IMG/VR virus record: IMGVR_UViG_3300027857_000017
From: a virus
Strand: one strand, 5' to 3'
Length of the DNA: 64,000 nt
The notes under the pieces were generated by a model. It saw nothing but the letters and a program-made list of their open reading frames with translations, searched no databases and was not told the origin of the DNA. Shown piece after piece: positions 921 to 62,219 of the stretch. Numbering within the stretch: position 1 is the stretch's first letter; every line of letters starts with the position of its first letter. The position numbers were made by a program, and so were the translations under genes.

Positions 921-1253
921 ACTTTTCTCCTCTTCAAAGTCTGAAAGGTAATTTTACATTGTACAAAAAAGCTACTCAAGTATGAGATGTATAACATAAG
1001 AAAAGTGTATTTGTCAAGAGACAAAGAAAAAGACCCTGGAATTCCAGGGTCTCAAGGATATCAAAGAGTTGGTAGATCTTCGATAGAAACTCACGTCTTA
1101 CTCTCACTTCGGCAATACTTTCATTGGGGTCTGCCAGATGAGGTTGTACGTCGAGTACCCCTCTAATTTGCCTGATGGCATTGACCGTTGCTTCAGCATC
1201 GTCATCACGGATATCTTTCTCTAGTACCACGATGAATGCATTGTATCGATCCG

Positions 1254-1721
1254 TCACTGTTTGTGTGCCTCTTTTCTTGTATAGATTTCTACGCGCTCAT
1301 GGATTGCCTGCAGTTTTGCTGCGAGCGGTGATGTCACTAGACCCCTTGATTTTGCCTCTTGAATGGGATCGATACGCAGATCAAGCACACGAATAAACAC
1401 GCAGTTATACCAACGATGGACTTCTCCATCCACATCCTCAATATACCAGTACGTTTCACTGGGTCGTGGCCCGTTTATCTCTTCATCCTCTTCACTCCAG
1501 TCATCGATGGGTTCCTTGACCACCTTTATGAGACGCCCAAAACGAGACCAGTTATCCTCTTGACGGGAAGATATCTCAAGAACGAGGTCACCAGGCTGCG
1601 GGTTACTGAGCACGTGGTACATCGCCTCAGTCGAGGCCGACCGGCCTCCATCGAGCGTCCTTGCCCACAGTTCTAGCGCACTTACCATGAGCAAGGAAAG
1701 CACCTGTTCTCTCTCAAACAT
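1254..1721 (-). CDS. hypothetical protein
   Basis: 155-aa acidic ORF in the leftward operon. Confidence 0.35.
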   Translation of the reverse strand: MFEREQVLSLLMVSALELWARTLDGGRSASTEAMYHVLSNPQPGDLVLEISSRQEDNWSRFGRLIKVVKEPIDDWSEEDEEINGPRPSETYWYIEDVDGEVHRWYNCVFIRVLDLRIDPIQEAKSRGLVTSPLAAKLQAIHERVEIYTRKEAHKQ

Positions 1722-2052: not shown

Positions 2053-3096
2053 CTAGTAATCAAGATGTACTCCACTGTTTGCTATCTTATTCCGCTCAAC
2101 ATAACGACTATACGGCACTGTGATACCAGACCACCCACCGGCATCAGCCAGATCAACAATATTCGTCCCACCATTTTTTGCGGACGTTGCCCAGGTGTGG
2201 CGTCCATCATGGGCAGAGAGATTATCTATCCCTATTCTCTTGCCAAGCGCATTCACACGAGCTGTGATAGCCCGTTTTGACATACAGCCCTGGAGGCGGG
2301 TTCCCCCTTTCCCCCTCTGACTTCCCATTAAGAGCAGGTCATTCAGTGAGAGATTAGTATACTGGAAGTAGTTCATCAAAGCCAGTATCGTATCGCCAGT
2401 TAATTTGTGGTTTTGATGTTTCCCCACCTTCTCCCGATAAAAGGCGATTTGCCCAGCACTCATGTCGATATGGGATCTTTTCAGTTGCGCCAGCTCACCA
2501 CACCGCAATCCGTGATCAAAGAAGAGACAAATGAGCACACGATCACGCCAACCTTGTGGTGTATCAGGCTGATCCTTCAGTTGAGCAACCTGCTCCTTAG
2601 AGAGGACAATGGCATCAGGCTTTTTGCCTCCAATACGCACTACCTCTCTATTGCGGTCTACATTGCGCCCCTCTTTGTGACTATACCCTTTGACCATCTT
2701 GATAAGTGCTAATTCTGCTACCGGAAGATGTCCCGCAGAAGTGGCAAGTTGGCAGAGCGTTTTAATCACCGAGAGTCTCACGCCAATAGAACCGATGGTA
2801 TATCCCTTTTGTAACTGCCAACGAACAAAGCCATTGATGATTCCATGCGTCATATGTTGCCACGCACTCAAATCTACATCGGCTTCTTGCCAATGTGCCA
2901 GATCAAGGATGATGCCAGAACAGGCTATTCCTGCTTCTTTGAGGTAGATACCAAACACATTGAGTCCGTTGGCAAAACTACGAATAGTTTCAGGTGATCT
3001 TCGCTCCAGGTAGTGACGCACGATATTCTGGCGGGTCACCTCATCAGCGACCCGTCCAGCAACTTCTAGGGAGGAGTAGGGGATGAGGTCAGTCAT
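2053..3096 (-). CDS. int: tyrosine-type site-specific recombinase / phage integrase
   Basis: 347 aa; LRCGEL (box I Arg), HDGRHTWAT (H-x-x-R-H box II) and C-terminal catalytic Tyr in VPYSRY, all typical of the Xer/lambda integrase family. Confidence 0.85.
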   Translation of the reverse strand: MTDLIPYSSLEVAGRVADEVTRQNIVRHYLERRSPETIRSFANGLNVFGIYLKEAGIACSGIILDLAHWQEADVDLSAWQHMTHGIINGFVRWQLQKGYTIGSIGVRLSVIKTLCQLATSAGHLPVAELALIKMVKGYSHKEGRNVDRNREVVRIGGKKPDAIVLSKEQVAQLKDQPDTPQGWRDRVLICLFFDHGLRCGELAQLKRSHIDMSAGQIAFYREKVGKHQNHKLTGDTILALMNYFQYTNLSLNDLLLMGSQRGKGGTRLQGCMSKRAITARVNALGKRIGIDNLSAHDGRHTWATSAKNGGTNIVDLADAGGWSGITVPYSRYVERNKIANSGVHLDY

Positions 3097-16093: not shown

Positions 16094-16177
16094 GGGTGAG
16101 TATCCAAGTGGACAAAGGAAACTGTCTGTAAAACAGCGGGCATCATGCCTTCAGAGGTTCGAATCCTCTCTCACCCA
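16094..16177 (+). tRNA. tRNA-Tyr (anticodon GUA), type II with long variable arm
   Basis: Acceptor GGGTGAG/CTCACCC, TA at positions 8-9, D-arm TCC-AAGTGGACAAA-GGA, anticodon loop CTGTAAA with U33-GUA-A37, variable hairpin GGCAT-C-ATGCC, T-arm AGAGG-TTCGAAT-CCTCT, discriminator A. D-arm and anticodon arm resemble bacterial tRNA-Tyr. Confidence 0.6.
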
Positions 16178-16185
16178 CCCTCTCT

Positions 16186-17805
16186 CTAGAATTCGCCTTT
16201 AATGAAGGAATTCATAAGCAAAGGAGTGACGGTATCTAGTCCTACACAATCCATCGCCCTGCGGTCGTCTGGCGCATTGTTCGTCACATGAGTGGCGGTC
16301 ATCTGCACATTGATGATCTTGGCATTTGGGTTGACCTGAGCACGATACATTTCCAGTAATTGTGCAGGGTGTCCACCGCGCCCGGACCACGTTTCACTAT
16401 CTGTCAGGATCACAAAGGCGTCCACAGGCATTTTGTCGTACAACGCATACCTCATCGGCAGTGACAAATCAGTCCCACCTCCGCCAATTCCCTTAAGCGT
16501 TCTCACTACATCATCCAACCTCTGTGAAGGAGAGATGGTCAACTTCTGCACACCCGTATCTATGCCAATGAGATGGTAGTTCGGCTCAGTTCTCGCCATC
16601 ACCAACGCCATAGCGCCAGCAGCCGTATGCACATCCATACCAGGGATGCCATTGACCTGCCCATAGTGCATCGATCCACTGGTGTCCACTGCCAGCAAGA
16701 TGTGCTTTCCAGTGGGTTCTACTGCTTCAAATGACAGATAGAAGGCATCATTGAGTGCATCGATAATTTCACGTACTGGCTCCCAGGTATGATTCCCTCG
16801 CACGCCTTTCCCGCTGGCATACGTGGTCAATGCCGCAAGGATCTTAATTGGGTGAAGCTTCGCATTGTGAATCCTTTCGCGGTCCCGAAGACGCGACGTA
16901 ATCACTTTTGTCATCTCACCCATTGGCTTGATCACACCCTCCCTGGTCATCGTTGCCAGATTGCGCGTCATTGCCTCAAGCGGCATATCCTCTAGCAATG
17001 CCTCCCAGACCCGTATAGAATGCAAATGCTGAGTAGGAACTGCTTCGCGTGGTAGTTTGTAGGTCTTGATCAGAGAAGCCACTTCACGATCATCCTGAGC
17101 ACGTTTGGCTCGCTCGTATGCCCAGATGATCTTGAGCGCATCATCAGGATGCGGCTCATCACCAACAGACTCCCACCCGCCTTTGACAATCCAGTGATAG
17201 AGGGTGTTATACGTTGAAGTCTCTGCCTTTGGATGTGCCAGGCGGAGCAGATCGCGCTGACTGTAGCCATCCCTCTGCTGATACTTGAGCACCTGATACG
17301 CCAGATTGTGTTCTTTCCTATCATTGAACCAGGAGGCAACGGCACGACGATAGGCACGTCCCCAGCCTCTAAACTGTTTGGCATAGGCGACGAAGTGCAG
17401 GAGGTGCGTGCCGGTCCTGGCTACTTGTGGCAACACAGAGAGCGCATACTGGCGAATCTTCTCATCATCGGCAGCAGCACACCTTGCCAGCGCAAACAGA
17501 GCAGGGTCGTTGGAAGCAGCTCGTCCAGCCTTTGACACTTCTACGATGGAGGTCACTATATCACGCCCATTGCCCTCTTTAAGCATACGCTCCACGGTCT
17601 CTAAATTTTGTTTGGTCAATTCACGCTGCCCGACATAGAGTGTGTTGCTATTGCTCCCCAATATTAAGAACCTTAAGAGGCGCGTAGGATCATCAACAGA
17701 CCAACTAAACCCACCAGCGTTATTGAGAACTTGACTTGACCCAGGAATAGGCTCGGTTTGTGGCGTCTGCTGTGAAAAACGTCCAAAGTTGAGATAGTTC
17801 TTCAT
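16186..17805 (-). CDS. rsr: Ro60 ortholog Rsr (TROVE domain + von Willebrand A domain)
   Basis: About 540 aa; TROVE-like N-terminal region and C-terminal vWA with the MIDAS motif LLAVDTSGSM. Start taken at MKNYLNF (17805), which follows a GGAGGAAGGGGG Shine-Dalgarno. The track ORF extends to 17826. Confidence 0.8.
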   Translation of the reverse strand: MKNYLNFGRFSQQTPQTEPIPGSSQVLNNAGGFSWSVDDPTRLLRFLILGSNSNTLYVGQRELTKQNLETVERMLKEGNGRDIVTSIVEVSKAGRAASNDPALFALARCAAADDEKIRQYALSVLPQVARTGTHLLHFVAYAKQFRGWGRAYRRAVASWFNDRKEHNLAYQVLKYQQRDGYSQRDLLRLAHPKAETSTYNTLYHWIVKGGWESVGDEPHPDDALKIIWAYERAKRAQDDREVASLIKTYKLPREAVPTQHLHSIRVWEALLEDMPLEAMTRNLATMTREGVIKPMGEMTKVITSRLRDRERIHNAKLHPIKILAALTTYASGKGVRGNHTWEPVREIIDALNDAFYLSFEAVEPTGKHILLAVDTSGSMHYGQVNGIPGMDVHTAAGAMALVMARTEPNYHLIGIDTGVQKLTISPSQRLDDVVRTLKGIGGGGTDLSLPMRYALYDKMPVDAFVILTDSETWSGRGGHPAQLLEMYRAQVNPNAKIINVQMTATHVTNNAPDDRRAMDCVGLDTVTPLLMNSFIKGEF

Positions 17806-18036
17806 CGTCCCCCTTCCTCCACTCATAAAATGACACGGGCGAGAAAACGCTCATAGGTACCAAAAGCAGCGATAACCTACGAACTGCGGCCCGTGTCGAT
17901 AAGTCCTGTACTGAGCAAGTGAACTGGGGCGGGAATGTCAGCGATCCCAAAAGAAGCTAATAACCCGCCCATCTCGGCTCAGTACCATGATTGCGTGTCC
18001 TGGATAAAAAGCGATACTGGGTATCTTAAAGTCAAT

Positions 18037-38358: not shown

Positions 38359-38976
38359 ATGAACGACGAGGAAACCTTAGCACAGAGAAAAGCAGCAGAG
38401 CATCGCTGGTGGATGATGCAAAACATGAGACCGGCCTTTCAATGGCTTGGTGGTCACTGGACTTCTGAAGATCTACGAGGATCACGCTTCGAGAACTTTG
38501 ATGCAACCAGGCAGCAGACAGCGTACAATGCTGCACGGATGTTTGTTGAGATGCCACTGGGAACATTCATCCTCTATGGTCCATACGGAACAGGGAAAAC
38601 CCATTTGTTGGCCGCGATCTGTAATGCCCTGCTCGAAAGACATATTGCCTGCAGGTTCGCCACTGCTCCCAACCTGTTTGGTGCTATTGGCGGCTATGTC
38701 AACCACCGTGAGGATTACAGCACCCTGATCGCGCAAGCGATTGCAACTCCACTGCTGGTCATTGATGACGTAGACAAGGCGCGATGGTCAGAGTTCCGAG
38801 AGGAGATCTACTTTGACATTCTTGACGGACGAGCAAAACGGAAGTTGCCCACTGCTCTTTCGACGAACCGCCTTGAGGAGTTGGATACTTTTGTTGGCGG
38901 TGCCTGTCAATCCCGTCTGTCTATTGGGCAGATTGCCATTGAGATGAGCGGTAAGGACTATCGCCCAGAGTTGTAA
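38359..38976 (+). CDS. DnaC/IstB-like AAA+ helicase loader
   Basis: Walker A GPYGTGKTHL and Walker B LLVIDDVD. Confidence 0.75.
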   Translation: MNDEETLAQRKAAEHRWWMMQNMRPAFQWLGGHWTSEDLRGSRFENFDATRQQTAYNAARMFVEMPLGTFILYGPYGTGKTHLLAAICNALLERHIACRFATAPNLFGAIGGYVNHREDYSTLIAQAIATPLLVIDDVDKARWSEFREEIYFDILDGRAKRKLPTALSTNRLEELDTFVGGACQSRLSIGQIAIEMSGKDYRPEL

Positions 38977-38989
38977 AGGAGAAACACAC

Positions 38990-40405
38990 ATGGTTCAACA
39001 GGGGGAGCAGCGGAGACAGGCGCGAGCGGCAACAGAAAGGTTGCTTTCCAATATAGAGGCAGAGCAGGGTGTGCTGGCAGGGTTACTCAATAATCCAAAG
39101 GCATTGCGCAAGATTGCAGATCGCCTTCAACCAGACCACTTCTGGAATGAGGGGCATAGAATAGCCTATACGGCAATGCTTACCCTCCATCGAGAGGGCT
39201 ATCGCACGACGGTTGACAACCTTGTGGAGGAGCTTTCCAGGGTTGATGGATTGTCGCGGGTGTGCAATCCCCGCGACAATGAGACACAAGGGTGGTTCTA
39301 TCTGGTAGAACTGGAAAGCAGTCTGACGACACTTGATCCTCTCTACGAATATGTTGAGACCGTGATCAAAAAGTCCACGTTCCGCCAACTCTACTATGCC
39401 GCCGCTGAGATTGCTGCATTGGCCCAAAGGGAAGAAGGGGACGCCGTGAGCCAGTCCGTGAAGTTAATCAACGACATCGCGCTGGGGACAAGTCGGCACA
39501 GTGTCACTCCCTTTGGAGAGGCCATTGACGCCTATCTCGCGGATCTTCGCCAGCGAAAAGCCGATATGGACGAGGGGATTGCGCGTGGTATTCCAACCGG
39601 CTTTTCTGACCTGGATAAGATGATTGGTGGGTTACAGCCTGGTGATCTCATCGCGGTTGGTGCCTTGACCGGATACGGGAAAAGCTCATTTGCGCTCAAC
39701 ATCGCGCTCAACATCGCGCTTCATGCCAAACATGTGCTGTTCTTCAGTCTAGAAATGGGCGTCGGTGAAATTGTTCAGCGTGCCTTATCGGTCTATACCG
39801 CCCTGTGTCATACGGAGGTGAAGAACTCCAATCTGCGTGATGCCACTCTTTCAGAGGGCGAATTGCGCATGATCGAGCAATATGGGCAGGAACTGAAAGC
39901 GTGTTGTGATATCAAGTTGGATGATAGCGCCTTTACCATCGAGGAGATCCTGGCAAAGTCAAAAGAGGTCCACAGTAAAAAACCGCTCAATTTGATTGTC
40001 GTTGATTACGTGCAATTGATGGCAATGACGAACCGCAATAAAAATGGGAATCAGGCTCAGGATCTTGAGGAGATTAGTCAGGCATTAAAGCGTCTGACCC
40101 TAGAATTGCAGGTGACGGTGATGGCTCTGGTACAGCTCAACCGAAAAGTAGAGGAGAGGTCATCCCCTGAGCCGATGCTTGCAGATATCAATGCGTCAGG
40201 CGGCATTTCGCGGAGCGCTGATGCTGTCGTGTTTCTCTACCCTGATAAAGAGGCGATGGAGCAGCGAAATGCGGGTCAACCCTTTCCTATGTGGTTTAAG
40301 GTCGCCAAAGCACGTGATGGAGAAATGGGACAGGCACCACTACAATTCAGTCCTAGTACAGTGTCCTTTAGCGAGATAGGGACGCCCAATGGAGATGCTG
40401 AATAA
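38990..40405 (+). CDS. dnaB: replicative DNA helicase DnaB
   Basis: 471 aa; RecA-like core GALTGYGKSSFALNIA, IVVDYVQLM, and a DnaB-like N-terminal domain. Confidence 0.85.
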   Translation: MVQQGEQRRQARAATERLLSNIEAEQGVLAGLLNNPKALRKIADRLQPDHFWNEGHRIAYTAMLTLHREGYRTTVDNLVEELSRVDGLSRVCNPRDNETQGWFYLVELESSLTTLDPLYEYVETVIKKSTFRQLYYAAAEIAALAQREEGDAVSQSVKLINDIALGTSRHSVTPFGEAIDAYLADLRQRKADMDEGIARGIPTGFSDLDKMIGGLQPGDLIAVGALTGYGKSSFALNIALNIALHAKHVLFFSLEMGVGEIVQRALSVYTALCHTEVKNSNLRDATLSEGELRMIEQYGQELKACCDIKLDDSAFTIEEILAKSKEVHSKKPLNLIVVDYVQLMAMTNRNKNGNQAQDLEEISQALKRLTLELQVTVMALVQLNRKVEERSSPEPMLADINASGGISRSADAVVFLYPDKEAMEQRNAGQPFPMWFKVAKARDGEMGQAPLQFSPSTVSFSEIGTPNGDAE

Positions 40406-40742: not shown

Positions 40743-41519
40743 ATGAATACAAGGAAGGATAGACACATGGAGAATCAACCACTGATGAGACTACGAACGA
40801 TGCCCTATGAGGAGTATCTGCAAACGCCAGAATGGATAGAGAAGCGAGAGCAGACATTAGAGCGAGATGGGCACCGCTGCCGCGTTTGTAATAGCCGTGA
40901 AAAACTGCATGTCCACCATCGTACCTATGCTCGACGCGGAAACGAAGATCTCAATGACCTCACCACCCTATGTGAGACCTGCCATGAAGAGTTTCATCAG
41001 AGAATAAGCCAGGCCGAGGTCATCGCAAGAACCGCAGGGAATTTGACGCCTCGTGTGCCCAAAGAAGTGGTGGACCAAAGGTGGGAAGACCATTTGATCG
41101 GGATTTTAATACAGCACCCGAATGTACGCCCGCACGTGGTTGGCATTGTGTATGAACATGACTTTGCTGGGACGGAGACACGTGCGTTGTACCACTTACT
41201 CCTTTCCCTCTCTGGGTCAGACCAGACCTTTGAACAAGTGATACCCCAATCACTCCTCCCTGCCTTCCAGAGAGCCATCCAAGCCATCCAGAAGGGCGCA
41301 CTCAGTGACGAGAGCGCGCTGATAAAAGAAGCCATGCAAGTGATTATTCATTTGAGACGCCAATACCTCTACCGCTTAAACTTGGACCTCAAAACCCATA
41401 TGCAAGAGTCTGCCACATCTGGTGACCATGCTGCTTTAAAACAAGCCCAGCAGCAAGTACAAGAGATTCGCCAACAACTGCGGGTACTAAACTCTACTAG
41501 AAGCAGATCGCGTGGATGA
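40743..41519 (+). CDS. HNH endonuclease domain protein
   Basis: CRVCNS..LHVHHRTYARRGNEDLNDLTTLCETCHEEFH is the HNH motif. Confidence 0.55.
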   Translation: MNTRKDRHMENQPLMRLRTMPYEEYLQTPEWIEKREQTLERDGHRCRVCNSREKLHVHHRTYARRGNEDLNDLTTLCETCHEEFHQRISQAEVIARTAGNLTPRVPKEVVDQRWEDHLIGILIQHPNVRPHVVGIVYEHDFAGTETRALYHLLLSLSGSDQTFEQVIPQSLLPAFQRAIQAIQKGALSDESALIKEAMQVIIHLRRQYLYRLNLDLKTHMQESATSGDHAALKQAQQQVQEIRQQLRVLNSTRSRSRG

Positions 41520-42106
41520 ATAACGAGATAAGGAGGATCTCTCATATGACAACAGAGTGGTATACCCAACCCCAATACATCGAAGCGGCACGGCGTGTGA
41601 TGGGACATATCGACTTGGACCCGGCCTCCTGCGCGGCAGCAAACCTGATTGTGCGTGCATCCAGGTACTATACCAAAGAGGACAATGGACTGACGCAGTC
41701 GTGGCAATCTGAAAGTGTATGGCTCAATCCACCGTACGGCAAGATCAACGGGCGGAGACTCACAGGGTTCTTCATTTCCAAACTGGTAGAGGAGTACCAG
41801 GCAGGTCATGTCGAGCAGGCAATCCTGCTGACCATGACCGATACGTCAACGAAGTGGTTTCAACTGATTAGAGACTACCCAATATGCTTTGTGAACCACA
41901 AGGTTCACTTTTACACCACTCGACCACTGAAGTCCAATCCAACTGCCTCGCATAAGTATGGTGTGCTTTTCGTGTATCTTGGACCATATGAGGATCGCTT
42001 TATTCAGGAGTTCAGTAGGTTTGGCGATATCTGGCGAAGGATCAGTGCAGACCAGAGAGCGTGTCAACCGTGTTTGTGGGTAGTGGGAAGTGAGGCAGTA
42101 TCATGA
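41516..42106 (+). CDS. phage-type DNA N6-adenine methyltransferase (Dam-like)
   Basis: IDLDPAS ... NPPYG motifs of the phage N-6-adenine methyltransferase family. Confidence 0.7.
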   Translation: MNNEIRRISHMTTEWYTQPQYIEAARRVMGHIDLDPASCAAANLIVRASRYYTKEDNGLTQSWQSESVWLNPPYGKINGRRLTGFFISKLVEEYQAGHVEQAILLTMTDTSTKWFQLIRDYPICFVNHKVHFYTTRPLKSNPTASHKYGVLFVYLGPYEDRFIQEFSRFGDIWRRISADQRACQPCLWVVGSEAVS

Positions 42107-42630
42107 CTACAGCAACCAGACACGTCATCCCAGTCTCAGGGAAAGATAGTCTCGCAACTGCTATCATCCAGATGAGAAGAGAACCTGACTTGCCTTACGA
42201 ATTGCTCTATAATCCAACAGGAATGGAATTGCCTGAGGTCGAGGCGTGGCTTGCTCTTGTAGAGCAGTACCTGGGTAAGCCGATTGTGCGTGTTGGCGAT
42301 GACCTTGGTGAGATTATCCGAGAACAACAGATCTTGCCTGCACATAAGCAGCGTTTTTGCACCAGGCTCGCCAAGATCATCCCGATGGAGGAATGGTTAG
42401 GAACAGACCCTGCAAGAGTCTATTATGGCATTCGTGCTGACGAGCAGAGGGTGGGCTATCAATCTATGAGCGGACACAACATCACGCCAGTCTACCCGCT
42501 CAAAGAAGAAGGGTATACGCTTCCAATGGTGTGGCAATTGGTGATGGACCTGGACCTCTTGCCACCACAATTCTTCTGGCAGTCCCTGTATGAGATGGTC
42601 GTGAAAAGGTTGGGCATAGCCCGTGAGTAA
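42103..42630 (+). CDS. PAPS reductase-like (ATP-PPase fold) protein, N-terminal segment
   Basis: PVSGKDS PP-loop motif and PAPS_reduct-like core; terminates at a TAA located in a hairpin loop (see findings). Confidence 0.6.
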   Translation: MTTATRHVIPVSGKDSLATAIIQMRREPDLPYELLYNPTGMELPEVEAWLALVEQYLGKPIVRVGDDLGEIIREQQILPAHKQRFCTRLAKIIPMEEWLGTDPARVYYGIRADEQRVGYQSMSGHNITPVYPLKEEGYTLPMVWQLVMDLDLLPPQFFWQSLYEMVVKRLGIARE

Positions 42631-42646
42631 CTCACGGGCTATGCCC
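42612..42646. repeat. perfect 35-bp palindrome (16-bp arms) with the in-frame TAA as its 3-nt centre
   Basis: GGGCATAGCCCGTGAG-TAA-CTCACGGGCTATGCCC. Confidence 0.8.
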
Positions 42647-42660
42647 CCTGGCAGTTCAAC

Positions 42661-43017
42661 ATGCTTTTTGCATGGCGTACCCGCCCAAATTGTCATATGT
42701 GCTTTTATCAGAGATTGTACGAATTGGTAGGGTTGTTAGAATATCATCCAGATCTCTTCTGGCAAGATGTAGCGCTAGAGGAGGAGATAGGGATGGCAGA
42801 TAAGCGAGTGAAGATGTTCAGCCTCAAGCGGGACTGGCCGCTACGCAAGATTGCGGAACACGCGGAAATCATTAAACGAAAACGATGTAGCGCGATCTGC
42901 AAAACGATCATTAAGCAAGCGAAGATAGAATTGAACTTTGATTTTGAGGATGAGGAACTGGATGATGAGCCAGATATGCTGCAGGTGGTCCCGTGTGGAT
43001 TATTCTGTGGAAAGTGA
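42661..43017 (+). CDS. C-terminal segment in the same frame as 42103-42630
   Basis: Same reading frame as the upstream ORF; only one stop codon (TAA 42628-42630) separates them. Confidence 0.4.
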   Translation: MLFAWRTRPNCHMCFYQRLYELVGLLEYHPDLFWQDVALEEEIGMADKRVKMFSLKRDWPLRKIAEHAEIIKRKRCSAICKTIIKQAKIELNFDFEDEELDDEPDMLQVVPCGLFCGK

Positions 43018-43513: not shown

Positions 43514-44209
43514 ATGGCTGGAATGGAGAGACGAAGAAAGGCGGACAAGGCGATGAAACCGATGGTACTTGATGTATATTGTGGTGCCGGTGGCTGTACA
43601 AAGGGATATCAACGTGCTGGCTTTTATGTGGTAGGAGTCGATATCCACCCGCAGATTCATTATTGTGGGGATGAGTTCATTCAGGATGATGCACTTCATT
43701 TTCTTGATACTGCTGACCTTTCTCGTTTTGCCGTGTTTCATGCGAGTCCACCTTGTCAGCATTTTACTCATATGCTTAATCATGGGATGACAGATAGAGG
43801 GAAGCATCCTGACCTTATCGATGCAACACGCCAACGTTTCAATGCTACAAGGAAACCCTATGTGCTTGAGAATGTTCCAGGCGCTCGCAGAAAACTGGTT
43901 CATCCCCTTCTTCTTTGCGGGAATATGTTTGGTTTACGTGTCTATCGGCATCGCCTCTTCGAGATATCATCTAAAACGTTTGTATTCGGGCATCCTCACG
44001 TAAAGCATCGAGAAAAAATAGTCCATGCAGGTATCGCACCACGGCAGAATGAGTTTTACTGTCCTGTAGGACATTTGGCGGATCAGGCTGGTTCCCAAAG
44101 AGCTATGGGCATTGATTGGATGCAAGGTCAATATGAGATAGCACAAGCTATTCCTCCTGCTTATACTGAGTGGATAGGTCGCCAACTGTTTCGAGAGGTA
44201 CAAGGATGA
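43514..44209 (+). CDS. short DNA (cytosine-5)-methyltransferase
   Basis: Motif I LDVYCGAGGCTKG, motif IV PPCQ, motif VI ENV; about 230 aa, a compact phage-type Dcm. Confidence 0.65.
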   Translation: MAGMERRRKADKAMKPMVLDVYCGAGGCTKGYQRAGFYVVGVDIHPQIHYCGDEFIQDDALHFLDTADLSRFAVFHASPPCQHFTHMLNHGMTDRGKHPDLIDATRQRFNATRKPYVLENVPGARRKLVHPLLLCGNMFGLRVYRHRLFEISSKTFVFGHPHVKHREKIVHAGIAPRQNEFYCPVGHLADQAGSQRAMGIDWMQGQYEIAQAIPPAYTEWIGRQLFREVQG

Positions 44210-46011: not shown

Positions 46012-46518
46012 TTAGTAGTTGTAGATCCCTGCATGTTCGCAGTTTTCTAGAGACCATCTCACCCACCATTCTAGCCAGACTCGTCTGGCTAGAATGGCAT
46101 CATAGCCAACATCTGGCTCCTCTCTTTCCCAAGAGAACTTCTCAAAGCCAGGAGTAGCATCGGGATGAGATGATCGCCAAGTATCGAGTGCGGTATGAAT
46201 GATGACCCAGTGTTCCCGTGTGAGTTGAGCGTGTCCAGGGTGCTCACGCATCAACCCATCGAAGTCATCGAAGAAGAGCCCATACAATCCCGTGTCCCTA
46301 CAAAATTCACCCCATGCGCTATAGGCGGGATGCCGACCATTGCTGTTCCCGGTCATCTCATCATTCGGGAATGTCGGTGCATCTGGTCGCCTTATCTCTT
46401 CAATGATTGGCTCAAAGTACTGGAGAGATCCATTCATGATGCGGGTATAGTCGGTGGTGTACTCATTGTCCTCTACGGGGCGCATCTTCGTGTTGCCAAT
46501 GTATATGCTATAACTCAC
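46012..46518 (-). CDS. hypothetical protein
   Basis: 168-aa ORF coupled to 46521-46961. Confidence 0.4.
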   Translation of the reverse strand: MSYSIYIGNTKMRPVEDNEYTTDYTRIMNGSLQYFEPIIEEIRRPDAPTFPNDEMTGNSNGRHPAYSAWGEFCRDTGLYGLFFDDFDGLMREHPGHAQLTREHWVIIHTALDTWRSSHPDATPGFEKFSWEREEPDVGYDAILARRVWLEWWVRWSLENCEHAGIYNY

Positions 46519-49329: not shown

Positions 49330-50136
49330 CTATCCTGGAAAAGGAATAACCTTCTTCTCCTTCTTTGGTTTGCTGACCTTCACCTTCTGCTCTCTCATGC
49401 CTGCTACAGCGGACATAGCGCCTGCGATGTGCAGTAAGTCTCCAGCATGTCCAGCAAGTCTCTCAGCCTCACTATACGTCCGTGTAGTGGTATCGTAGCG
49501 TCTAATCTCTAGATGGTGATGTTCCTGCAGGTCGTACTTTATCACTTCAATGGTCCCACGCCTGGACTTCCACGCTTTGAGCACTTCTCTCTTCCTCCCA
49601 ATGAAAGGATGTTCTCTTGCCCAATGCTTGAGTGGACCCTGGATTTCTGGTAGTTCCCACAGTGGAATGTAGAGTTCGGGTGGTCGTGCCTCTTCTCCTC
49701 GCCTTTTATTTCCCTTCTGTGCCTCTGTGTACATACTGTAGTCAGGGTTAATGGCACGTATCAGCCAGGCGGGAGGATGCGCAAAGACCAATCCCTCGAA
49801 GGGGTTGCGCCACGGGAGGATGCGAGCCGCTGCCTTCTCACCAATGGAGCTGATAGCATCAGGATAATAATGGACACCCCAGGAGTCGATCTTGCATCTA
49901 ACTGAGACGGTGATGCCATCAAGCGTGAAGGTGTACATGTCCTCAAAAATGGCTTTGAATGAGGGATCGTTGCGAATGGCGTCCAGGTTCATGGCTGAAT
50001 CTCCCCTTTTTGAGCGTAGTGTGGCGGAAAAAGCGAAAAATGGGAAGAGAGACGGTACTTTTGTGAGGATATGCCTCTTTTGTCTGGTCTGACCTGTAAA
50101 GAAGAAAAAAGTGAATCTATACCATATCTGTTTCAC
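49330..50136 (-). CDS. putative plasmid-type replication protein (unknown family)
   Basis: Gene lies between the iteron/centromere-like repeats and parAB; probable start MNLDAIRND (about 49988). Confidence 0.3.
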   Translation of the reverse strand: MKQIWYRFTFFFFTGQTRQKRHILTKVPSLFPFFAFSATLRSKRGDSAMNLDAIRNDPSFKAIFEDMYTFTLDGITVSVRCKIDSWGVHYYPDAISSIGEKAAARILPWRNPFEGLVFAHPPAWLIRAINPDYSMYTEAQKGNKRRGEEARPPELYIPLWELPEIQGPLKHWAREHPFIGRKREVLKAWKSRRGTIEVIKYDLQEHHHLEIRRYDTTTRTYSEAERLAGHAGDLLHIAGAMSAVAGMREQKVKVSKPKKEKKVIPFPG

Positions 50137-50174
50137 GTCATAGACATTTCCTCTTTTCTTGATGATCTTTAGCT

Positions 50175-50194
50175 AACCTGCTACTTAGCAGGTT
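50175..50194. promoter_or_regulatory. parS-like palindrome AACCTGCTA-ct-TAGCAGGTT
   Basis: Perfect 9-bp arms; related copies at 50285-50300 and 51974-51990 flank parAB. Confidence 0.5.
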
Positions 50195-50329
50195 AGCAGG
50201 AGAAGATGAAGTCTTCATAATAAATAGAGAAACATCTCTCAGTATTTTAAGCCTATTTTTGAATATATTTTATAACCTAATCATAACCTGCTACCTAGCA
50301 TCTTCTTAAATTGTAAGAAGGTTCATATA

Positions 50330-50583: not shown

Positions 50584-51042
50584 TTACTTCGGGAGATCCT
50601 CCCAGGTGAATGGGCGATCAAGGAGATTCGGGTCTAATGGATATCCTGCTTCTAGTAACACCCTGAGCAGGGTCCTATTGAACGCATCGACTTTACTTTG
50701 CCCAGCTCGCTCCATGAGGTCGTAGAATGCTGGGAGCATACGCTTGTCCACCATCACGTTCTCCTTCTTGTACCTCTGCTCAAAAGGAACTTTGCTGCGA
50801 CGGTCATGGGAAGAGGGTTGCCCCATACCTTTCCAGGTGCTGATGTTTGGCAATGAGATGGGAGCAGGGAGTAGCGGTGACTCTGGGACTTGCGTTGACA
50901 CTGGAGACGATGATGGTGTCTCTCCAGTGACTGGAGACGATTGTAGAGGTGCTTCCCCCACTTTGCGTTCTACTTGGCTCCTCATCCTGAGTAATCGTTC
51001 TGTAGCACTTTCCTGTGGTGGATCAGGCGTGTTCTGTTGCAT
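50584..51042 (-). CDS. putative centromere-binding partition protein (ParB/ParG-like)
   Basis: Small basic gene overlapping parA; C-terminal VPFEQRYKKENVMVDKRMLPAFYDLMERAG is ribbon-helix-helix-like. Confidence 0.4.
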   Translation of the reverse strand: MQQNTPDPPQESATERLLRMRSQVERKVGEAPLQSSPVTGETPSSSPVSTQVPESPLLPAPISLPNISTWKGMGQPSSHDRRSKVPFEQRYKKENVMVDKRMLPAFYDLMERAGQSKVDAFNRTLLRVLLEAGYPLDPNLLDRPFTWEDLPK

Positions 51043-51973
51043 ATGCCTCGCCTCTTTCGTCGGTCAGTTTGACGAGCTGTCGGTAACATTCTCGCATGGC
51101 TAACACGTTTTTCATTTTTTCTGTATCCTTCAATGTGTAGGTGAAGATGGATCGTCCTGCTTTGTAAGCTTCCTGAAAAACAACCTTCTTTGGGATGTTG
51201 AAATCGGTCATCTTCTCAGGGAGAATGGCTCGAAAATCGCGCAGAATGTCGTTCGCTAATCCACTCGACTGCACGAGGTTGGGGATGAGTGTCAGGATAT
51301 TCACTTTGAACTTCAACTCGGCCTCAACCACTTGAATTTGATTAAGAAGTAATTCGAATGCGCGAATAGATGTTTGTTCTGCCTGAATGGGAATGATCAA
51401 GCCTGATCGAAGCAAATCATGAGACTCTTTGGTAAGATCGCCAGCCCCTTCCCGATCAAGCAGTAATTCGCCCTTGGCGTTTACTGGGATACCTACAGCG
51501 CGAATGATATTATCTGTGAGGTTTCCAAAGTAAGAAGGCGAATCAATCACGATGACATCAAAGGCATGTTTGAATGCCTGTAAGAGATCGAGGAGACGCG
51601 TCTCCCTGCTTCTTTCTCTATTGAGGTCTTTATCCAGTTCCATCATCTGAAAGTTACTTGGAATGGCAAAGAACTTCTCACCAGGCACCTCCTGGATAAG
51701 ATCTTGAGGATTGATCTTCTGGGGATTGATCAGTGCATCGTGGAGAGTCGGAATATCCATTCGTATCCAGAAGTCTTTGAGTCCTATTCCCTCCGTTCCA
51801 TGTCCTTGTGGGTCAAGATCGATAAATAAGACGTTTTTGCTGCCGTCTTCTGCTTCAGCAGCAGCTTCGTCAAAACCCACCGTACTCTTGCCTACGCCAC
51901 CTTTTTGGTTAATTACAGCTTTTACGCGTGCCATAGGTGAACTCTTCTCCTCTTCGCAAAATAACTTGCTCAT
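51023..51973 (-). CDS. parA: ParA/Soj-family partition ATPase
   Basis: Deviant Walker A KGGVGKST at the N-terminus. Confidence 0.85.
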   Translation of the reverse strand: MSKLFCEEEKSSPMARVKAVINQKGGVGKSTVGFDEAAAEAEDGSKNVLFIDLDPQGHGTEGIGLKDFWIRMDIPTLHDALINPQKINPQDLIQEVPGEKFFAIPSNFQMMELDKDLNRERSRETRLLDLLQAFKHAFDVIVIDSPSYFGNLTDNIIRAVGIPVNAKGELLLDREGAGDLTKESHDLLRSGLIIPIQAEQTSIRAFELLLNQIQVVEAELKFKVNILTLIPNLVQSSGLANDILRDFRAILPEKMTDFNIPKKVVFQEAYKAGRSIFTYTLKDTEKMKNVLAMRECYRQLVKLTDERGEAYATEHA

Positions 51974-53623: not shown

Positions 53624-53969
53624 TTACCCACATTTTGACCATTACTCTTTTTCATTGTTTGCGTGACGGGGATGAGCCGGGATAACAACACTACAATCTT
53701 GGGCTATTCGGCTTTTAATGTGTAATCACCCACTCGCTATCAATTCCTACATTTTTCTAAAATTCGGCATTTGTTGTTGACAAGTAGGAAGTTATCGAGT
53801 ATACTACACAATAGAAGCCGAATTTTAGAAAAATGTAGAAGGGCGGTTGTGTCGGGATTTCGCCCCCTGTATAACCCGATCAGAGATGCTTACTGTACGC
53901 AGTAACGACGGCTGATAACCTTGAGGGAGCCACCTCAACAAAGAGTATAGCAGAAAGGAAAAATGAGAA

Positions 53970-54726: not shown

Positions 54727-56055
54727 ATGAGTGTGTTTACACAAGAAACCCTAACAGACAGGCAGCGTAACCTGTTGAACCTTCTCAATCTCCAAGGATG
54801 GAGCATCGCGAAGATTGACGAAGATGAGGATGACTATGCTATTACAGCAAGTCCATCCTCTATCCCCCACTCGTGCCCTATCTGCCAGCACACTCACCTC
54901 TTCAAGCATGGCTCTGATGCCCAGGGCATCCACGATACCCCGATCCACGGCAAACGCGTTGTCATCAAGGTAGACAGGCAACGCTATCGCTGTACGAACT
55001 GTGGCAAAGCCTTCTTCCAATCGTTGCCAGATGTGGATGAGAAGCGTTTCTGTACGAAGCGCCTCATTGCCTACATTCAGCGTCGATCCATGAGCAGAAC
55101 CTTCCTCTCGCTGGCAGAGGAAGTAGGTCTACATGAGCGCACGGTGAGGCGTATCTTCCATGATTATGTAGAGGCGTTAGAACAATCCACTCACTTTGCC
55201 ACGCCCCGCGTCATGGGTCTGGACGAGCTGCATGTCATCCACCAGGCGCGAGGCATCATTACCAACATTGAGGCAGGCACGATTGTCGAATTTCTCCATG
55301 ATCGTAAGAAGCAAACCATCATGCGCTACCTCTCGCACCTCGAAAAGAAGGATCAGGTTGAAATAGCCTGTATCGACATGTGGCAACCCTACAGAGAGGC
55401 CATCAGGGAAGTCTTGCCCCAGGCCAGGATCGTGGTTGACAAATTTCACGCTGTTAAGCTCGCCAATGAGGCCCTTGAACAAGTGCGTAAAGAGGTGAGA
55501 GCAGGTCTATCCGACAAACAGAGGCGCGCCCTTATGCATGATCGGTTTTTGCTCCTCAAGCGGCGAAGCGATTTGAAGGACAAAGAGAAGCTGATCTTAG
55601 AAACCTGGACGGAGAACTTCCCAGCACTTGGCAAGGCATATGCCATGAAGGAGAGCTTCTTTGAGATTTGGAATGCGAAGACGGTGGATGAGGCAAATGA
55701 CCTCTACTATGCGTGGATCTGCCAGATTACGCCGGAGATCGCCGACGCCTTTGTCCCGATCACGCTGACGATGGAGGAATGGGGCGATGAGATCTTCGCC
55801 TACTTCGATCACAGATATACCAATGCCTACACTGAAAGTCTAAATGGGTTGGCGAGGGTTGCGGCCAGACTTGGAAGAGGGTACTCCTTTGATGTGCTGA
55901 GAGCACGATTGCTCTACGGGATTGGGCAGCACCCGAACCGAAAGAAGAAAGAGAAGAGTGTGGAATCACTCCTAGCAGGCGTTAATATTTCCACACTCGT
56001 CGAATCCGCTCAGGCAGAGCTTGAAACAGAGGAACCCACATTAAAAGCCGAATAG
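54727..56055 (+). CDS. ISL3-family transposase
   Basis: N-terminal zinc-finger CPICQ..CTNCGK (zf-ISL3) and DDE core; 442 aa. Confidence 0.8.
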   Translation: MSVFTQETLTDRQRNLLNLLNLQGWSIAKIDEDEDDYAITASPSSIPHSCPICQHTHLFKHGSDAQGIHDTPIHGKRVVIKVDRQRYRCTNCGKAFFQSLPDVDEKRFCTKRLIAYIQRRSMSRTFLSLAEEVGLHERTVRRIFHDYVEALEQSTHFATPRVMGLDELHVIHQARGIITNIEAGTIVEFLHDRKKQTIMRYLSHLEKKDQVEIACIDMWQPYREAIREVLPQARIVVDKFHAVKLANEALEQVRKEVRAGLSDKQRRALMHDRFLLLKRRSDLKDKEKLILETWTENFPALGKAYAMKESFFEIWNAKTVDEANDLYYAWICQITPEIADAFVPITLTMEEWGDEIFAYFDHRYTNAYTESLNGLARVAARLGRGYSFDVLRARLLYGIGQHPNRKKKEKSVESLLAGVNISTLVESAQAELETEEPTLKAE

Positions 56056-60104: not shown

Positions 60105-60452
60105 TCACCTCTTGTTTCCCTCTCGTGGTCTGCGCATGGTGAATCGCTCTTCTCTGTAGACTCGTTTTCGTTTGGCGATACAGATGAAGCAGTACTGTGC
60201 CCCATTGTTCCGCCTGGTCTCATTGCCACAATCAAGACAGATGCGAGGCGTTTCCGGTGGCAATGGGTGCCTTCTTCGCGCTCGTGGGTGTGGTGCATCT
60301 GCTTCGGCATGTTCTTCGATGAGCTTTTTGGGTGGACGAGAACGACCCTCCCGCCTTTGCGTTTCCCGACACTCAAAACAATAGTGTGCGTGGGCGTTAC
60401 GCCTGGTTGGTAGTCCACAGGTAATGCATATCCCTGGCTCTCGCTCTGTCAT
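60105..60452 (-). CDS. double zinc-ribbon basic protein
   Basis: CITCG...CFECR and CLDCG...CFIC. Confidence 0.35.
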   Translation of the reverse strand: MTEREPGICITCGLPTRRNAHAHYCFECRETQRREGRSRPPKKLIEEHAEADAPHPRARRRHPLPPETPRICLDCGNETRRNNGAQYCFICIAKRKRVYREERFTMRRPREGNKR

Positions 60453-60955
60453 CGTGCCGATCCCATCTGCGCATCCTGTAGTTGTTGGCGTAGAGTCTGT
60501 ACCTGTTCTTCCAACTGTTTTTGATACGCTTCAGCAAGGACGCTGACTCTCCCATTTTCCGCTAGAACACGCACCAGGCCATCTGGAGTCTGAATGTCCC
60601 AGATGCGAAACTGGGCGCTGATTTCCCGCAATGATTGCAACCCTATCGTCAGATGATGAGTCTCTAGAAAGGTGAAAACCGATGAGATGACATCCTGGAT
60701 GAGCTGAACCTCATTCTCTTGTGCCTGTGTGTGTATCAGTTGGGAAGTCGGTTCGAGAACCGACTTCCCAACTGATACACGTCCCTGTGCAAATTCATCA
60801 ATCTGCTCTTGTGAAATGCCAAGAAAGAGACCTGCGTTATCTCTCACGCATTTGATACGTCCAAGTGTCGTGTACTGCCGGATGGTAGCTACTGCTAGAT
60901 TGAATTGTGCTGCTACCTCTTCCATTGTGTATAATCGGTTACTTGTTGTTGTCAT
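60449..60955 (-). CDS. HTH_17-like N-terminal DNA-binding protein containing a 50-bp palindrome
   Basis: YTMEEVAAQFNLAVATIRQYTTLGRI HTH; the perfect palindrome at 60731-60780 encodes VSVGKSVLEPTSQLIH. Confidence 0.45.
   Translation of the reverse strand: MTTTSNRLYTMEEVAAQFNLAVATIRQYTTLGRIKCVRDNAGLFLGISQEQIDEFAQGRVSVGKSVLEPTSQLIHTQAQENEVQLIQDVISSVFTFLETHHLTIGLQSLREISAQFRIWDIQTPDGLVRVLAENGRVSVLAEAYQKQLEEQVQTLRQQLQDAQMGSAR
60731..60780. repeat. perfect 24-bp-arm inverted repeat (2-bp spacer) inside a CDS
   Basis: GTGTATCAGTTGGGAAGTCGGTTC-ga-GAACCGACTTCCCAACTGATACAC. Confidence 0.8.
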
Positions 60956-61049: not shown

Positions 61050-62219
61050 TTATTGTCCCGTTGCTTTCAATTGCGCAGCCGCCTCTGCCATGAGCGTGCC
61101 TATGTCTGCCATGATGGACGAGAGTGGACGTGGAGACGGGAGTGGTTCTGTCTGACCTCCTGATGACGGAGTAGGTTGAGGTGGAGGGGGACTAAACCAC
61201 GGATTGCCTCCCAATGACCAGACGGAAATGTTGGAGAGTCCCTGACTCAAAATCGCTTGCATTCTCATATCCATTGTGGTTGAGTCAGCATAAGAGTAAG
61301 ATATCCCGCTTTGTGACCACATCATCTCTCCAGATGCCGGGTCCCGTACGGCAGTAGAGAAGCCTGGAAGACTTGATGCTTGCCTACTAGGAAACTTCTT
61401 GACGTGATAGGTCCCTGTGGCTCCCGAATAGGCATAAGAAGGTATGCCTATCACGATCCTGTTGACATCGGTGATTTTACTTTTCGTCCACTGGCAGCAG
61501 GCAGTGAGTGTCAAAAGTGGCGCAATAGGTGTGCCCGCTCCATTATCCGATTGCAGATCATAACACATGGCGGTGATGTAATCTGCTGGCAGTGGTTCCA
61601 GATCTTCATACTTGAAGGGATAATAGCCTTGATATTTGGCGTTAAAAATCACCGGCCCGTCAATCATTAACTGGTAGTTCTGAGCATGCAAGGCATTGCC
61701 AAGTTGTTTGATAAATGCCAGGTAACCTTGATACTGCTGCTCGCTCCACTTACTAAACCCCTCGAAATCCAACTCAATCCCGGTGAATTGTGCTGTCTTC
61801 AGAAACTCTACTGTGGTGGTGATAAAGTCTTGCGTCAGGAGAGGAGAAGATGTGAGCGCAACCATTCCTGCCGTTTGTCCTGAGATGGTGACGAATTGCC
61901 TCTCGCTAGCTGCTTTGATAGATGCCACATTCTCAGGGCTGTAGCCAAGGCATCTTGCGCTTGTCACGGTGTCCTGCACAAGAGTGCCAGTATCTTGTAA
62001 GGTGTAGTACTGAGGTTTCAGTACTGTAATCTGTTTGGTGATATATTCAGTTTGGACATCACACGATAAATCTGGATAGAGCCAGGCCATCGTTGTCACT
62101 TCCATCTTCTTCCCCTCTGGTATAACTGTCTTCTTGGGAATTGGCGCAGGCGTCGTTCCGCAAGAGATGAGAATGAACGTGATGAGAATACTTATGAGAA
62201 TAAGCACACGCTTGTTCAT
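61050..62219 (-). CDS. lipoprotein with a glycoside hydrolase family 18 (chitinase-like) domain
   Basis: Signal peptide plus lipobox LISCG; GH18 catalytic motif GIELDFEGF (DxDxE); Pro-rich C-terminus. Confidence 0.6.
   Translation of the reverse strand: MNKRVLILISILITFILISCGTTPAPIPKKTVIPEGKKMEVTTMAWLYPDLSCDVQTEYITKQITVLKPQYYTLQDTGTLVQDTVTSARCLGYSPENVASIKAASERQFVTISGQTAGMVALTSSPLLTQDFITTTVEFLKTAQFTGIELDFEGFSKWSEQQYQGYLAFIKQLGNALHAQNYQLMIDGPVIFNAKYQGYYPFKYEDLEPLPADYITAMCYDLQSDNGAGTPIAPLLTLTACCQWTKSKITDVNRIVIGIPSYAYSGATGTYHVKKFPSRQASSLPGFSTAVRDPASGEMMWSQSGISYSYADSTTMDMRMQAILSQGLSNISVWSLGGNPWFSPPPPQPTPSSGGQTEPLPSPRPLSSIMADIGTLMAEAAAQLKATGQ

Follow-up and report, generated by a model that had tools for sequence, protein, structure and literature searches.

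A stop codon at the centre of a perfect coding palindrome: probable template-switch inactivation of a viral SspD/DndC-like gene

Introduction

The stretch of viral DNA analyzed here (hereafter the window, 64,000 nucleotides of the IMG/VR record IMGVR_UViG_3300027857_000017) carries two open reading frames, 42103-42630 and 42661-43017, which lie in the same frame and have a single stop codon between them, the TAA at 42628-42630. This triplet sits in the middle of a perfect 35-bp palindrome. Are the two frames one gene or two, how did a stop codon come to occupy the very centre of a symmetrical sequence, and is the palindrome an inserted element, a signal, or part of the coding sequence in its own right?

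Results

Genomic context

The window element looks like a temperate phage or phage-plasmid, and encodes a tyrosine integrase, a ParA-like partition protein, a DnaC-like loader with a DnaB helicase, and a minor-tail-like protein (Table 1). Dam, HNH, DnaB, DnaC-like loader and methyltransferase genes are the neighbours of the interrupted gene in the window. An insertion sequence resides inside the element, as indicated by a complete ISL3-family transposase featuring Zn-ribbon, HTH and DDE domains; a pair of 31-nt inverted repeats is found upstream of the transposase. The sole tRNA in the window is a tRNA-Tyr(GTA), not a suppressor. It directly adjoins the gene for a 545-aa Ro60/TROVE + vWA homolog, and no Y-RNA-like Rfam match was detected anywhere in the window at the gathering threshold.

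Table 1. Features of the window and palindromes of the related genes. Arms are given in nt; for palindromes of the gene family, the arm length and, where given, the centre base follow the name of each locus.
Feature	Position	Strand	Remarks
Palindrome, 11+0+11, perfect	1031-1052		inside ORF 976-1257(-)
Tyrosine integrase	2053-3096	-	
tRNA-Tyr (GTA)	16094-16179		
Ro60/TROVE + vWA homolog	16186-17826	-	
DnaC-like loader and DnaB helicase	38359-40405		
Dam-type N6-adenine DNA methyltransferase	41516-42106	+	Pfam PF05869, E 1.1e-16; overlaps the gene start
Ancestral single gene, SspD/DndC-like PP-loop enzyme, PAPS-reductase family	42103-43017	+	304 codons if TAA is read as sense
ORF1, truncated 175-aa product	42103-42630	+	PP-loop SGKDS; GAGG Shine-Dalgarno
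Perfect palindrome, site A of the gene family	42612-42646	strandless	plus strand encodes GIARE-stop-LTGYA
TAA stop	42628-42630	+	42629, its middle base, is the centre of the palindrome; TTA (Leu) in homologs
Untranslated gene remainder	42631-43017	+	frame still open; holds invariant Cys residues
Outermost right-arm codon, GCC (Ala)	42643-42645	+	relatives have K/Q/N/E (codon comparison, protein alignments)
ORF2	42661-43017	+	118 aa
DNA methyltransferase	43514-44209	+	PHROG 363; weak C5 match
Second coding palindrome, 15+2+15	46066-46097	-	ORF 46012-46518(-), 167-aa protein, function unassigned
Palindrome, 12+2+12, perfect	50172-50197		apparently intergenic, between ORFs 49330-50136(-) and 50584-51042(-)
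ParA-like partition protein	51023-51973	-	
Inverted repeat pair, 31 nt	53747-53838		upstream of the ISL3 transposase
ISL3-family transposase, complete	54727-56055		
Third coding palindrome, 24+2+24 (50 bp)	60731-60780	-	ORF 60449-60955(-), MerR/HTH_17-like, excisionase-like
Minor-tail-like protein	61050-62219		
Site A, centre at 2nd base of a Leu codon			window (17; A), L116 (14; T), L117 (13; T), L124 (11; T)
Site B, T centre, 1st base of the Trp codon in LFAWRTRPN			L036 (15), L125 (14), L129 (13), L130 (12)
Site B, A centre, giving Arg			L120 (17), L127 (17), L003 (12)
Site C, centre at 1st base of a Trp codon (column 53, invariant elsewhere)			L123 (16; A, giving Arg)
Site D, centre at 2nd base, Ile/Leu/Phe column 313			L128 (17; A, giving Asn)
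Distant subclade, 21+1+21			covers AGRSRMNCSFCFFQ; centre in the codon of the first CxxC Cys
Distant subclade, 14+1+14			spans the VYYG motif
Distant subclade, 10 or 11+1+10 or 11			centre on a Gln codon, variable region

One gene interrupted by a single stop

A search made with the read-through product retrieved 338 homologs. The best 25 of the 338 are single proteins of 290-318 aa, sharing ~59-76% identity with the query at 98-100% query coverage, and the best full-length match is only 76% identical. A sequence-only reading of the locus had supposed that phage proteins of this type usually carry a C-terminal extension and that both ORFs probably derive from one gene; homologs of 290-305 aa, 60-76% identical, indeed cover 98-100% of the read-through product, as single chains that run through both ORFs ungapped. 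Alignment A1 is likewise ungapped at the palindrome, and the stop falls in a hydrophobic, mostly Leu column (RLGIARE-stop-LTGYAPW in the window vs. RLGVASELLTGYKPW in the homolog P0002). The segment 42103-43017 is one ancestral gene, and the palindrome is not an insertion. The tiny palindromic insertion, possibly a MITE, which the same reading had listed among the explanations, can be discarded: the gene has no extra residues compared with intact homologs, the stop aligns with a Leu codon, and the palindrome is single copy, its own two arms being the only matches in the window when up to 3 mismatches are allowed.

The start of ORF1 overlaps the stop of the upstream Dam gene (ATGA), and the frame stays open for 128 codons after the TAA. 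ORF2 would start at an in-frame ATG, 30 nt past the stop, without a Shine-Dalgarno sequence, while neighbouring genes have GAGG or GGAG. The PVSGKDS motif corresponds to residues 10-16 of ORF1, and S12, G13, K14, D15 and S16 are invariant in alignment A1. ORF1 is matched by PHROG 424 ('PAPS reductase', E 5.9e-14), homologs by the PADLOC SspD model (P0002, E 1.2e-43; P0052, E 5.5e-50); Pfam PAPS_reduct matches are weak or precomputed for homologs, and missing for ORF1 alone. The cysteines C86, C197, C298 and C302 are invariant in alignment A1, C200 nearly so. Four of the five lie past the stop in the window, in the NCHMC motif at ~42691-42702 and in the C-terminal CGLFCGK, and are missing in the truncated product.

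Neither SspA/B/C nor DndA/D/E operon partners were found beside the window gene, and no partner domains in the related loci. The family is used in DNA phosphorothioation, and an anti-defence role in phages has been proposed for it. Phage PAPS reductases have been described as DndC/SspD homologs located in anti-defence regions (PMC13551039). The phage JSS1_004, looked at as a 'PAPS reductase evading Dnd', turned out to be irrelevant, the product being a kinase. Close homologs are missing in isolate phage genomes, and every sequence described here is a metagenomic assembly. A scan of genome contigs for the gene family returned only 7 distant matches, all in metagenome-assembled genomes, the closest being distant ones of Bacteroidota and Blastocatellia.

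Mosaic recombination at the palindrome was considered and rejected, as identities to all relatives are similar whether the N- or the C-terminal half is compared. An internal-deletion variant of the gene was found in locus L032 (IMGVR_UViG_3300044658_000141, ~1500-1890), in which …YYGIRADERRV is joined to DDEPDYLSVVPCGLFCGK. The deletion removes ~170 codons, palindrome region included, and occurs on more than one contig (proteins P0127 and P0130).

The palindrome at 42612-42646

The perfect 35-bp palindrome with a central TAA is real, and its symmetry slightly better than had been read. It consists of 17-nt arms and a 1-nt centre, the A at 42629 (GGGCATAGCCCGTGAGT-A-ACTCACGGGCTATGCCC), equivalently 16+TAA+16. 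The minus strand reads GIARELLTGYA, and inverting the palindrome would therefore restore the Leu. Across 30 Markov-shuffled versions of the 64-kb window, the arms of perfect palindromes (centre 0-3 nt) never exceeded 11, which places this one beyond chance. The folding energy of the single strand is -39.7 kcal/mol for RNA (z -5.6) and -21.6 kcal/mol for DNA (z -8.2). The outermost right-arm codon, GCC, is the reverse complement of GGC, which in the left arm encodes the conserved Gly of 'RLG'.

Searches at the site for an Rfam family, a promoter and an intrinsic terminator were all negative; the stem is followed by CCTGGCAG rather than by a T-run. The idea of an mRNA hairpin for readthrough or translational attenuation, also put forward from the letters of the DNA, finds no backing: homologs have a sense codon in place of the stop, TAA terminates 11 of 31 other window genes, and the site lacks both an Rfam match and a terminator T-run.

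Identical stop and palindrome are also carried by JGI contig 3300005537 and Logan contig SRR5579859. The exact 175-aa product is recorded on 4 contigs, all of which carry the stop (centre A). A TTA (ON) allele of the window phage was found neither in the protein database, nor among cluster members, nor in a pattern scan of viral contigs.

Palindromes in the related genes

Each of the closest homologs with readable DNA has exactly one perfect palindrome with a 1-nt centre within the gene, at one of four sites in total (A to D in Table 1); this count covers 11 close-clade genes, plus L130 and the partial L036. Three genes (L116, L117 and L124) have TTA at the centres of their own perfect site-A palindromes, and the sequences of the arms differ. 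At site D the right arm overwrote ancestral codons, the family's WPLRKIAEHAE being replaced by WPLARNSSERPR in L128. Within the gene clade the palindrome is a conserved feature with a variable sequence, and in the window only the centre base changed. The structure had been suspected to be recent or selected, and own-arm palindromes in relatives, changes at centres and compensated arms all agree with that view.

A T at the centre specifies the family residue (Leu, Trp, Ile, Val or Cys), an A a deviant one (stop, Arg or Asn). The centre base is A or T, never G or C, in 22 of 22 distinct perfect palindromes of this type (1-nt centre, arms of at least 9 nt; loci and window), whatever bases flank it. 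None of 8 centres falls at a third codon position, and ~40% of lineages are in the deviant A state, with ORFs otherwise intact. Among 95 unique genes, the sole nonsense codon sits exactly on a palindrome centre. Similarly, deviant residues in three columns are confined to palindrome centres, namely Arg in column 53 (invariant Trp) and column 227 (W/G), and Asn in column 313 (I/L/F). No palindrome was found in 74 of the 95 family members.

The clade formed by P0023, P0137 and P0138, with Arg at site B, lacks the second CxxC Cys (CHGFF) and has a 9-residue insertion near site A; it may be a copy in decay. Further site-B palindromes were sought by a pattern scan of viral contigs, which returned the known contig and unrelated short matches only. 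A sequencing or assembly artefact, another suspicion raised early, is unlikely, since palindromes recur across samples and assemblers, in diverged homologs, and keep the reading frames.

Palindrome density and arm pairing

The 95 unique genes (89.6 kb) contain 20 palindromes with arms of at least 10 nt, all of them with a 1-nt centre; centres of 0, 2 or 3 nt do not occur at this arm length. Only 1 palindrome of the 1-nt-centre type, with the same arm threshold, resides in 333 kb of flanks, the density in the gene being ~70 times higher. Synonymous-codon shuffling of the genes yields 0.11 palindromes on average vs. 20 observed, so the protein sequence is no explanation for them. The flank palindrome (L129, 3099-3145, 23+1+23) belongs to a related phage, where it lies within the gene of a ParB_N-Dam fusion methyltransferase; its centre A opens an AAT codon (Asn), which flipped would be TAT (Tyr).

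Complementarity around the sites is bimodal, being either perfect outward from the centre or at background, with no decaying intermediates. At site A, both members changed in 9 of 17 arm pairs and a single member in none, a figure reached in 0 of 500 shuffles; compensated pairs are 3 at site B. In some compensations the change is synonymous in one arm and non-synonymous in the other, as in L127, where V to A in one arm goes with AGA to AGG. Pairing within perfect arms is strictly Watson-Crick, G:T pairs being absent. Coupled changes of this kind and the lack of G:T point to homogenisation of the arms at the DNA level, rather than to selection on an RNA stem.

Arms tend to be longer in the A state (17, 17, 17, 16, 17, 12) than in the T state (14, 13, 11, 15, 14, 13, 12, 14, 21), with a one-sided P of 0.047, a weak test given the small number of related sequences. 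Conservation at centre columns is not significantly higher than at random columns (P about 0.10).

Centre flips

L120 and L130 fall into the same protein cluster at 90% identity. The former has an A centre and 17-nt arms, the latter a T centre and 12-nt arms, and at site B they differ by four adjacent bases of the outer left arm plus the centre. A single reverse-complement copy of centre and right arm over left arm and centre accounts for all these differences. The window footprint matches this pattern, combining a unique GCC outer codon with a flipped centre. In a neighbour-joining tree built with the palindrome region excluded, the centre state of site B changed at least 4 times, a Trp allele being nested among Arg alleles within one 90%-identity cluster. 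Both centre states thus occur within a single cluster of relatives of this identity, and 4 of 4 window-phage contigs carry A.

Template switching is documented to homogenise the arms of inverted repeats and to invert loops or spacers (PMC8794818, PMC8604942). Replacement of several bases together by the reverse complement of the adjacent arm is seen in L120 vs. L130, in the window and in L128. Spacer inversion is seen as well: 1-nt centres alternate between T and A, and a 2-nt centre that is GA in the window is TC in L139.

Other palindromes in the window

Palindromes with arms of at least 9 nt number 6 in the window vs. about 1 expected; two of them, 50172-50197 and 1031-1052, are described in Table 1 only. 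The 2-nt centre just mentioned is that of the second coding palindrome, 46066-46097, where GA, at 46081-46082, is part of CGA (Arg). The homolog L139 has a 10+2+10 palindrome in the same place, with TC as part of CTC (Leu). Leu is found at this centre in 55 of 58 homologs, Arg only in the window protein and in a relative 83% identical to it. Passing from TC to GA takes two specific adjacent changes, not one point mutation, and is the outcome expected of an inversion; this centre is the clearest evidence for true inversion. The third coding palindrome encodes RVSVGKSVLEPTSQLIH; its TC centre is part of a CTC Leu codon, which flipped would be CGA (Arg). No relatives of the HTH protein with this 50-bp palindrome were found in IMG/VR.

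Discussion

Origin of the stop codon

There is no insertion in the window gene, and the stop is the centre base of the palindrome; palindromes of the family are conserved in position and have compensated arms, and the centres of the relatives change repeatedly. The TAA probably arose when a template switch inverted the centre of the palindrome, leaving a null allele of the SspD/DndC-like gene. The gene of the close relatives features one perfect odd-length palindrome within the coding sequence. A replication template switch would have copied the reverse complement of left arm and centre T over centre and right arm. The same copy event would have lengthened the arms to 17 nt, turned the outer right-arm codon into GCC, and inverted the central T:A pair, changing Leu TTA into TAA. 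Translation would then end at codon 176, ahead of the CxxC and of the C-terminal Cys, giving a null (OFF) allele, and the same mechanism could flip the centre back.

We infer that a template switch, not a simple point mutation, made the change at 42629, that the truncated product is inactive, and that the change is reversible. An identical sequence would result from a plain T-to-A transversion at 42629, so that the case for a template switch here is built on the arm extension that came with the change and on analogy. Past the stop the frame is still open, implying that the event is recent or that the allele is reversible or periodically restored. Template switching alone does not account for the presence of the palindrome in the SspD/DndC-like gene rather than in the genes around it. 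A recombination site had also been envisaged; this holds loosely, if arm-to-arm template switching during replication is meant; the evidence does not point to a recombinase site.

Alternative explanations

The palindrome may in addition be a selected contingency switch, maintained because its centre flips often between a functional (T) and a disabling (A) state, the window being in a phase-OFF, returnable condition. We regard this as possible, though doubtful; it extends the template-switch explanation and excludes nothing of it. It fits the presence of exactly one palindrome per close-clade gene at four different sites, as in site turnover, the density of palindromes (~70-fold over flanks, 20 vs. 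1; 0.11 in the shuffle null) and the absence of imperfect, decaying ones. It fits also the avoidance of third codon positions by all 8 centres, the ~40% of lineages in the A state with otherwise intact ORFs, and the Arg at a near-invariant Leu of the second gene, common to proteins only 83% identical. The sole other 1-nt-centre palindrome of the flanks moreover sits in a ParB-Dam methyltransferase gene, and palindromes occur in other modification or accessory genes. Yet the two states were never found together in one population (4 of 4 window-phage contigs are A), conservation of centre columns is not significant, and 74 of 95 family members do without a palindrome. A T/A swap at codon position 2 always exchanges hydrophobic and polar residues, so that the 'designed' look is partly automatic, and the Arg clade around P0023, also devoid of a CxxC cysteine, looks like decay. 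A cis-acting structural element travelling in the gene, the stop being an accidental hazard of carrying it, appears rather unlikely. Candidate roles are an mRNA hairpin limiting expression or cut by RNase III, or a cruciform or hairpin DNA site needed by the enzyme itself or for replication. The occurrence of one palindrome per gene, free in position and sequence, and the very stable stem are in keeping with such an element, as is the frequent location of the gene in replication modules; gene neighbours differ between phages, so a gene-linked site would have to sit inside the gene. The 1-nt centre and the strict Watson-Crick pairing without G:T are unlike a product of selection for RNA pairing, however; avoidance of the hazard should favour neutral centres, which 0 of 8 at third positions contradicts, and most family members are palindrome-free, with no Rfam family or terminator match.

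An ordinary T to A nonsense mutation in a dispensable accessory gene, the central position being a coincidence, is improbable. One base change is enough, and phage accessory genes are often lost, L032 being an internal-deletion variant of this one. Against this stand the position of the sole nonsense codon of 95 genes on 1 specific base of about 900, the site-B centre base that changed at least 4 times, the confinement of deviant residues at invariant columns to centres, and the 2-nt inversion in the same genome. Functional recoding, either by readthrough of the TAA or by translation of both ORFs as a split enzyme upon reinitiation at ATG 42661, is very improbable: the 128-codon downstream frame is intact and an in-frame ATG lies 30 nt past the stop, but homologs are single chains with a sense codon, TAA is not reassigned, being the normal stop of 11 of 31 window genes, ORF2 lacks a Shine-Dalgarno sequence, and the only window tRNA, tRNA-Tyr(GTA), is no suppressor. 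Perfect symmetry and sharp ends are what a MITE/REP-like insertion, or an assembly or sequencing artefact, might produce; nevertheless we give this next to no credit, as there are no extra residues relative to homologs and no other copy, and diverged homologs, obtained from other samples and with other assemblers, are palindromic at the site too, with the reading frame kept.

Significance

If the palindromes are only mutational, they provide an unusually clean natural example of template switching, in which coding palindromes are kept perfect across deep divergence, and the process overwrites amino acids and knocks out a gene by a one-base 'inversion'. This is relevant wherever such changes are treated as independent point mutations or phage pseudogenes are called. 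If they are selected, the gene, related to DNA phosphorothioation enzymes, would carry a recombinase-free on/off device comparable in role to repeat-tract contingency loci, and detectable from metagenome sequence alone. The clade palindromes may be an unrecognised kind of on/off site. More tentatively, perfect odd-length palindromes in phage anti-defence or DNA-modification genes could be selected single-base-pair 'invertons' working without a recombinase. Their arms would be kept perfect by template switching, with the A:T centre flipping often and reversibly toggling a conserved hydrophobic, Trp or Cys codon vs. a stop or charged one. Such palindromes would make a new class of phase-variation device, the window copy being caught in the OFF phase.

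Relation to known systems

REP and MITE-type elements have a short perfect palindrome in common with the site described here; the window palindrome differs from them because it is not inserted, not repeated, and encodes protein in frame. The gene product resembles SspD and DndC, ATP pyrophosphatases of DNA phosphorothioation, in the PP-loop, the conserved cysteines and the PADLOC SspD match. The conserved cysteines of DndC are Fe-S ligands, and their counterparts are conserved in the window gene family. Unlike SspD/DndC, the window gene stands alone beside methyltransferases, with no sspABC or dndADE partners seen, and its activity is putative.

In invertible-DNA phase variation (Hin, Gin/Cin, Fim invertons), the product depends on the orientation of a segment bounded by inverted repeats, as it does here. 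The invertible segment is however one base pair, and both orientations were not seen in one population. The arms abut, which makes duplex synapsis by a recombinase implausible, and no invertase or site-specific recombinase adjoins the gene, the integrase and the ISL3 transposase of the window being far away. Contingency loci and phasevarions offer another resemblance, a hypermutable site in a DNA-modification gene with reversible loss of function. They switch by frameshift upon slippage of a repeat tract, whereas here the putative switching would be a centre-flip substitution.

The locus is alike quasipalindrome, or template-switch, mutagenesis (the Ripley model; the TSMs of Loytynoja and co-workers, PMC8794818; yeast coding sequences, PMC8604942) in the reverse-complement copying of one arm onto the other. 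All four footprints of the process are found: this copying, changes of several bases in a single event, homogenised and extended arms, and an inverted loop or spacer. In contrast to those cases, the palindromes described here are perfect at the same codon across homologs ~75% identical, are found in one gene only, once per gene, with a 1-nt A/T centre, and their inversion toggles a sense codon vs. a stop or radical codon.
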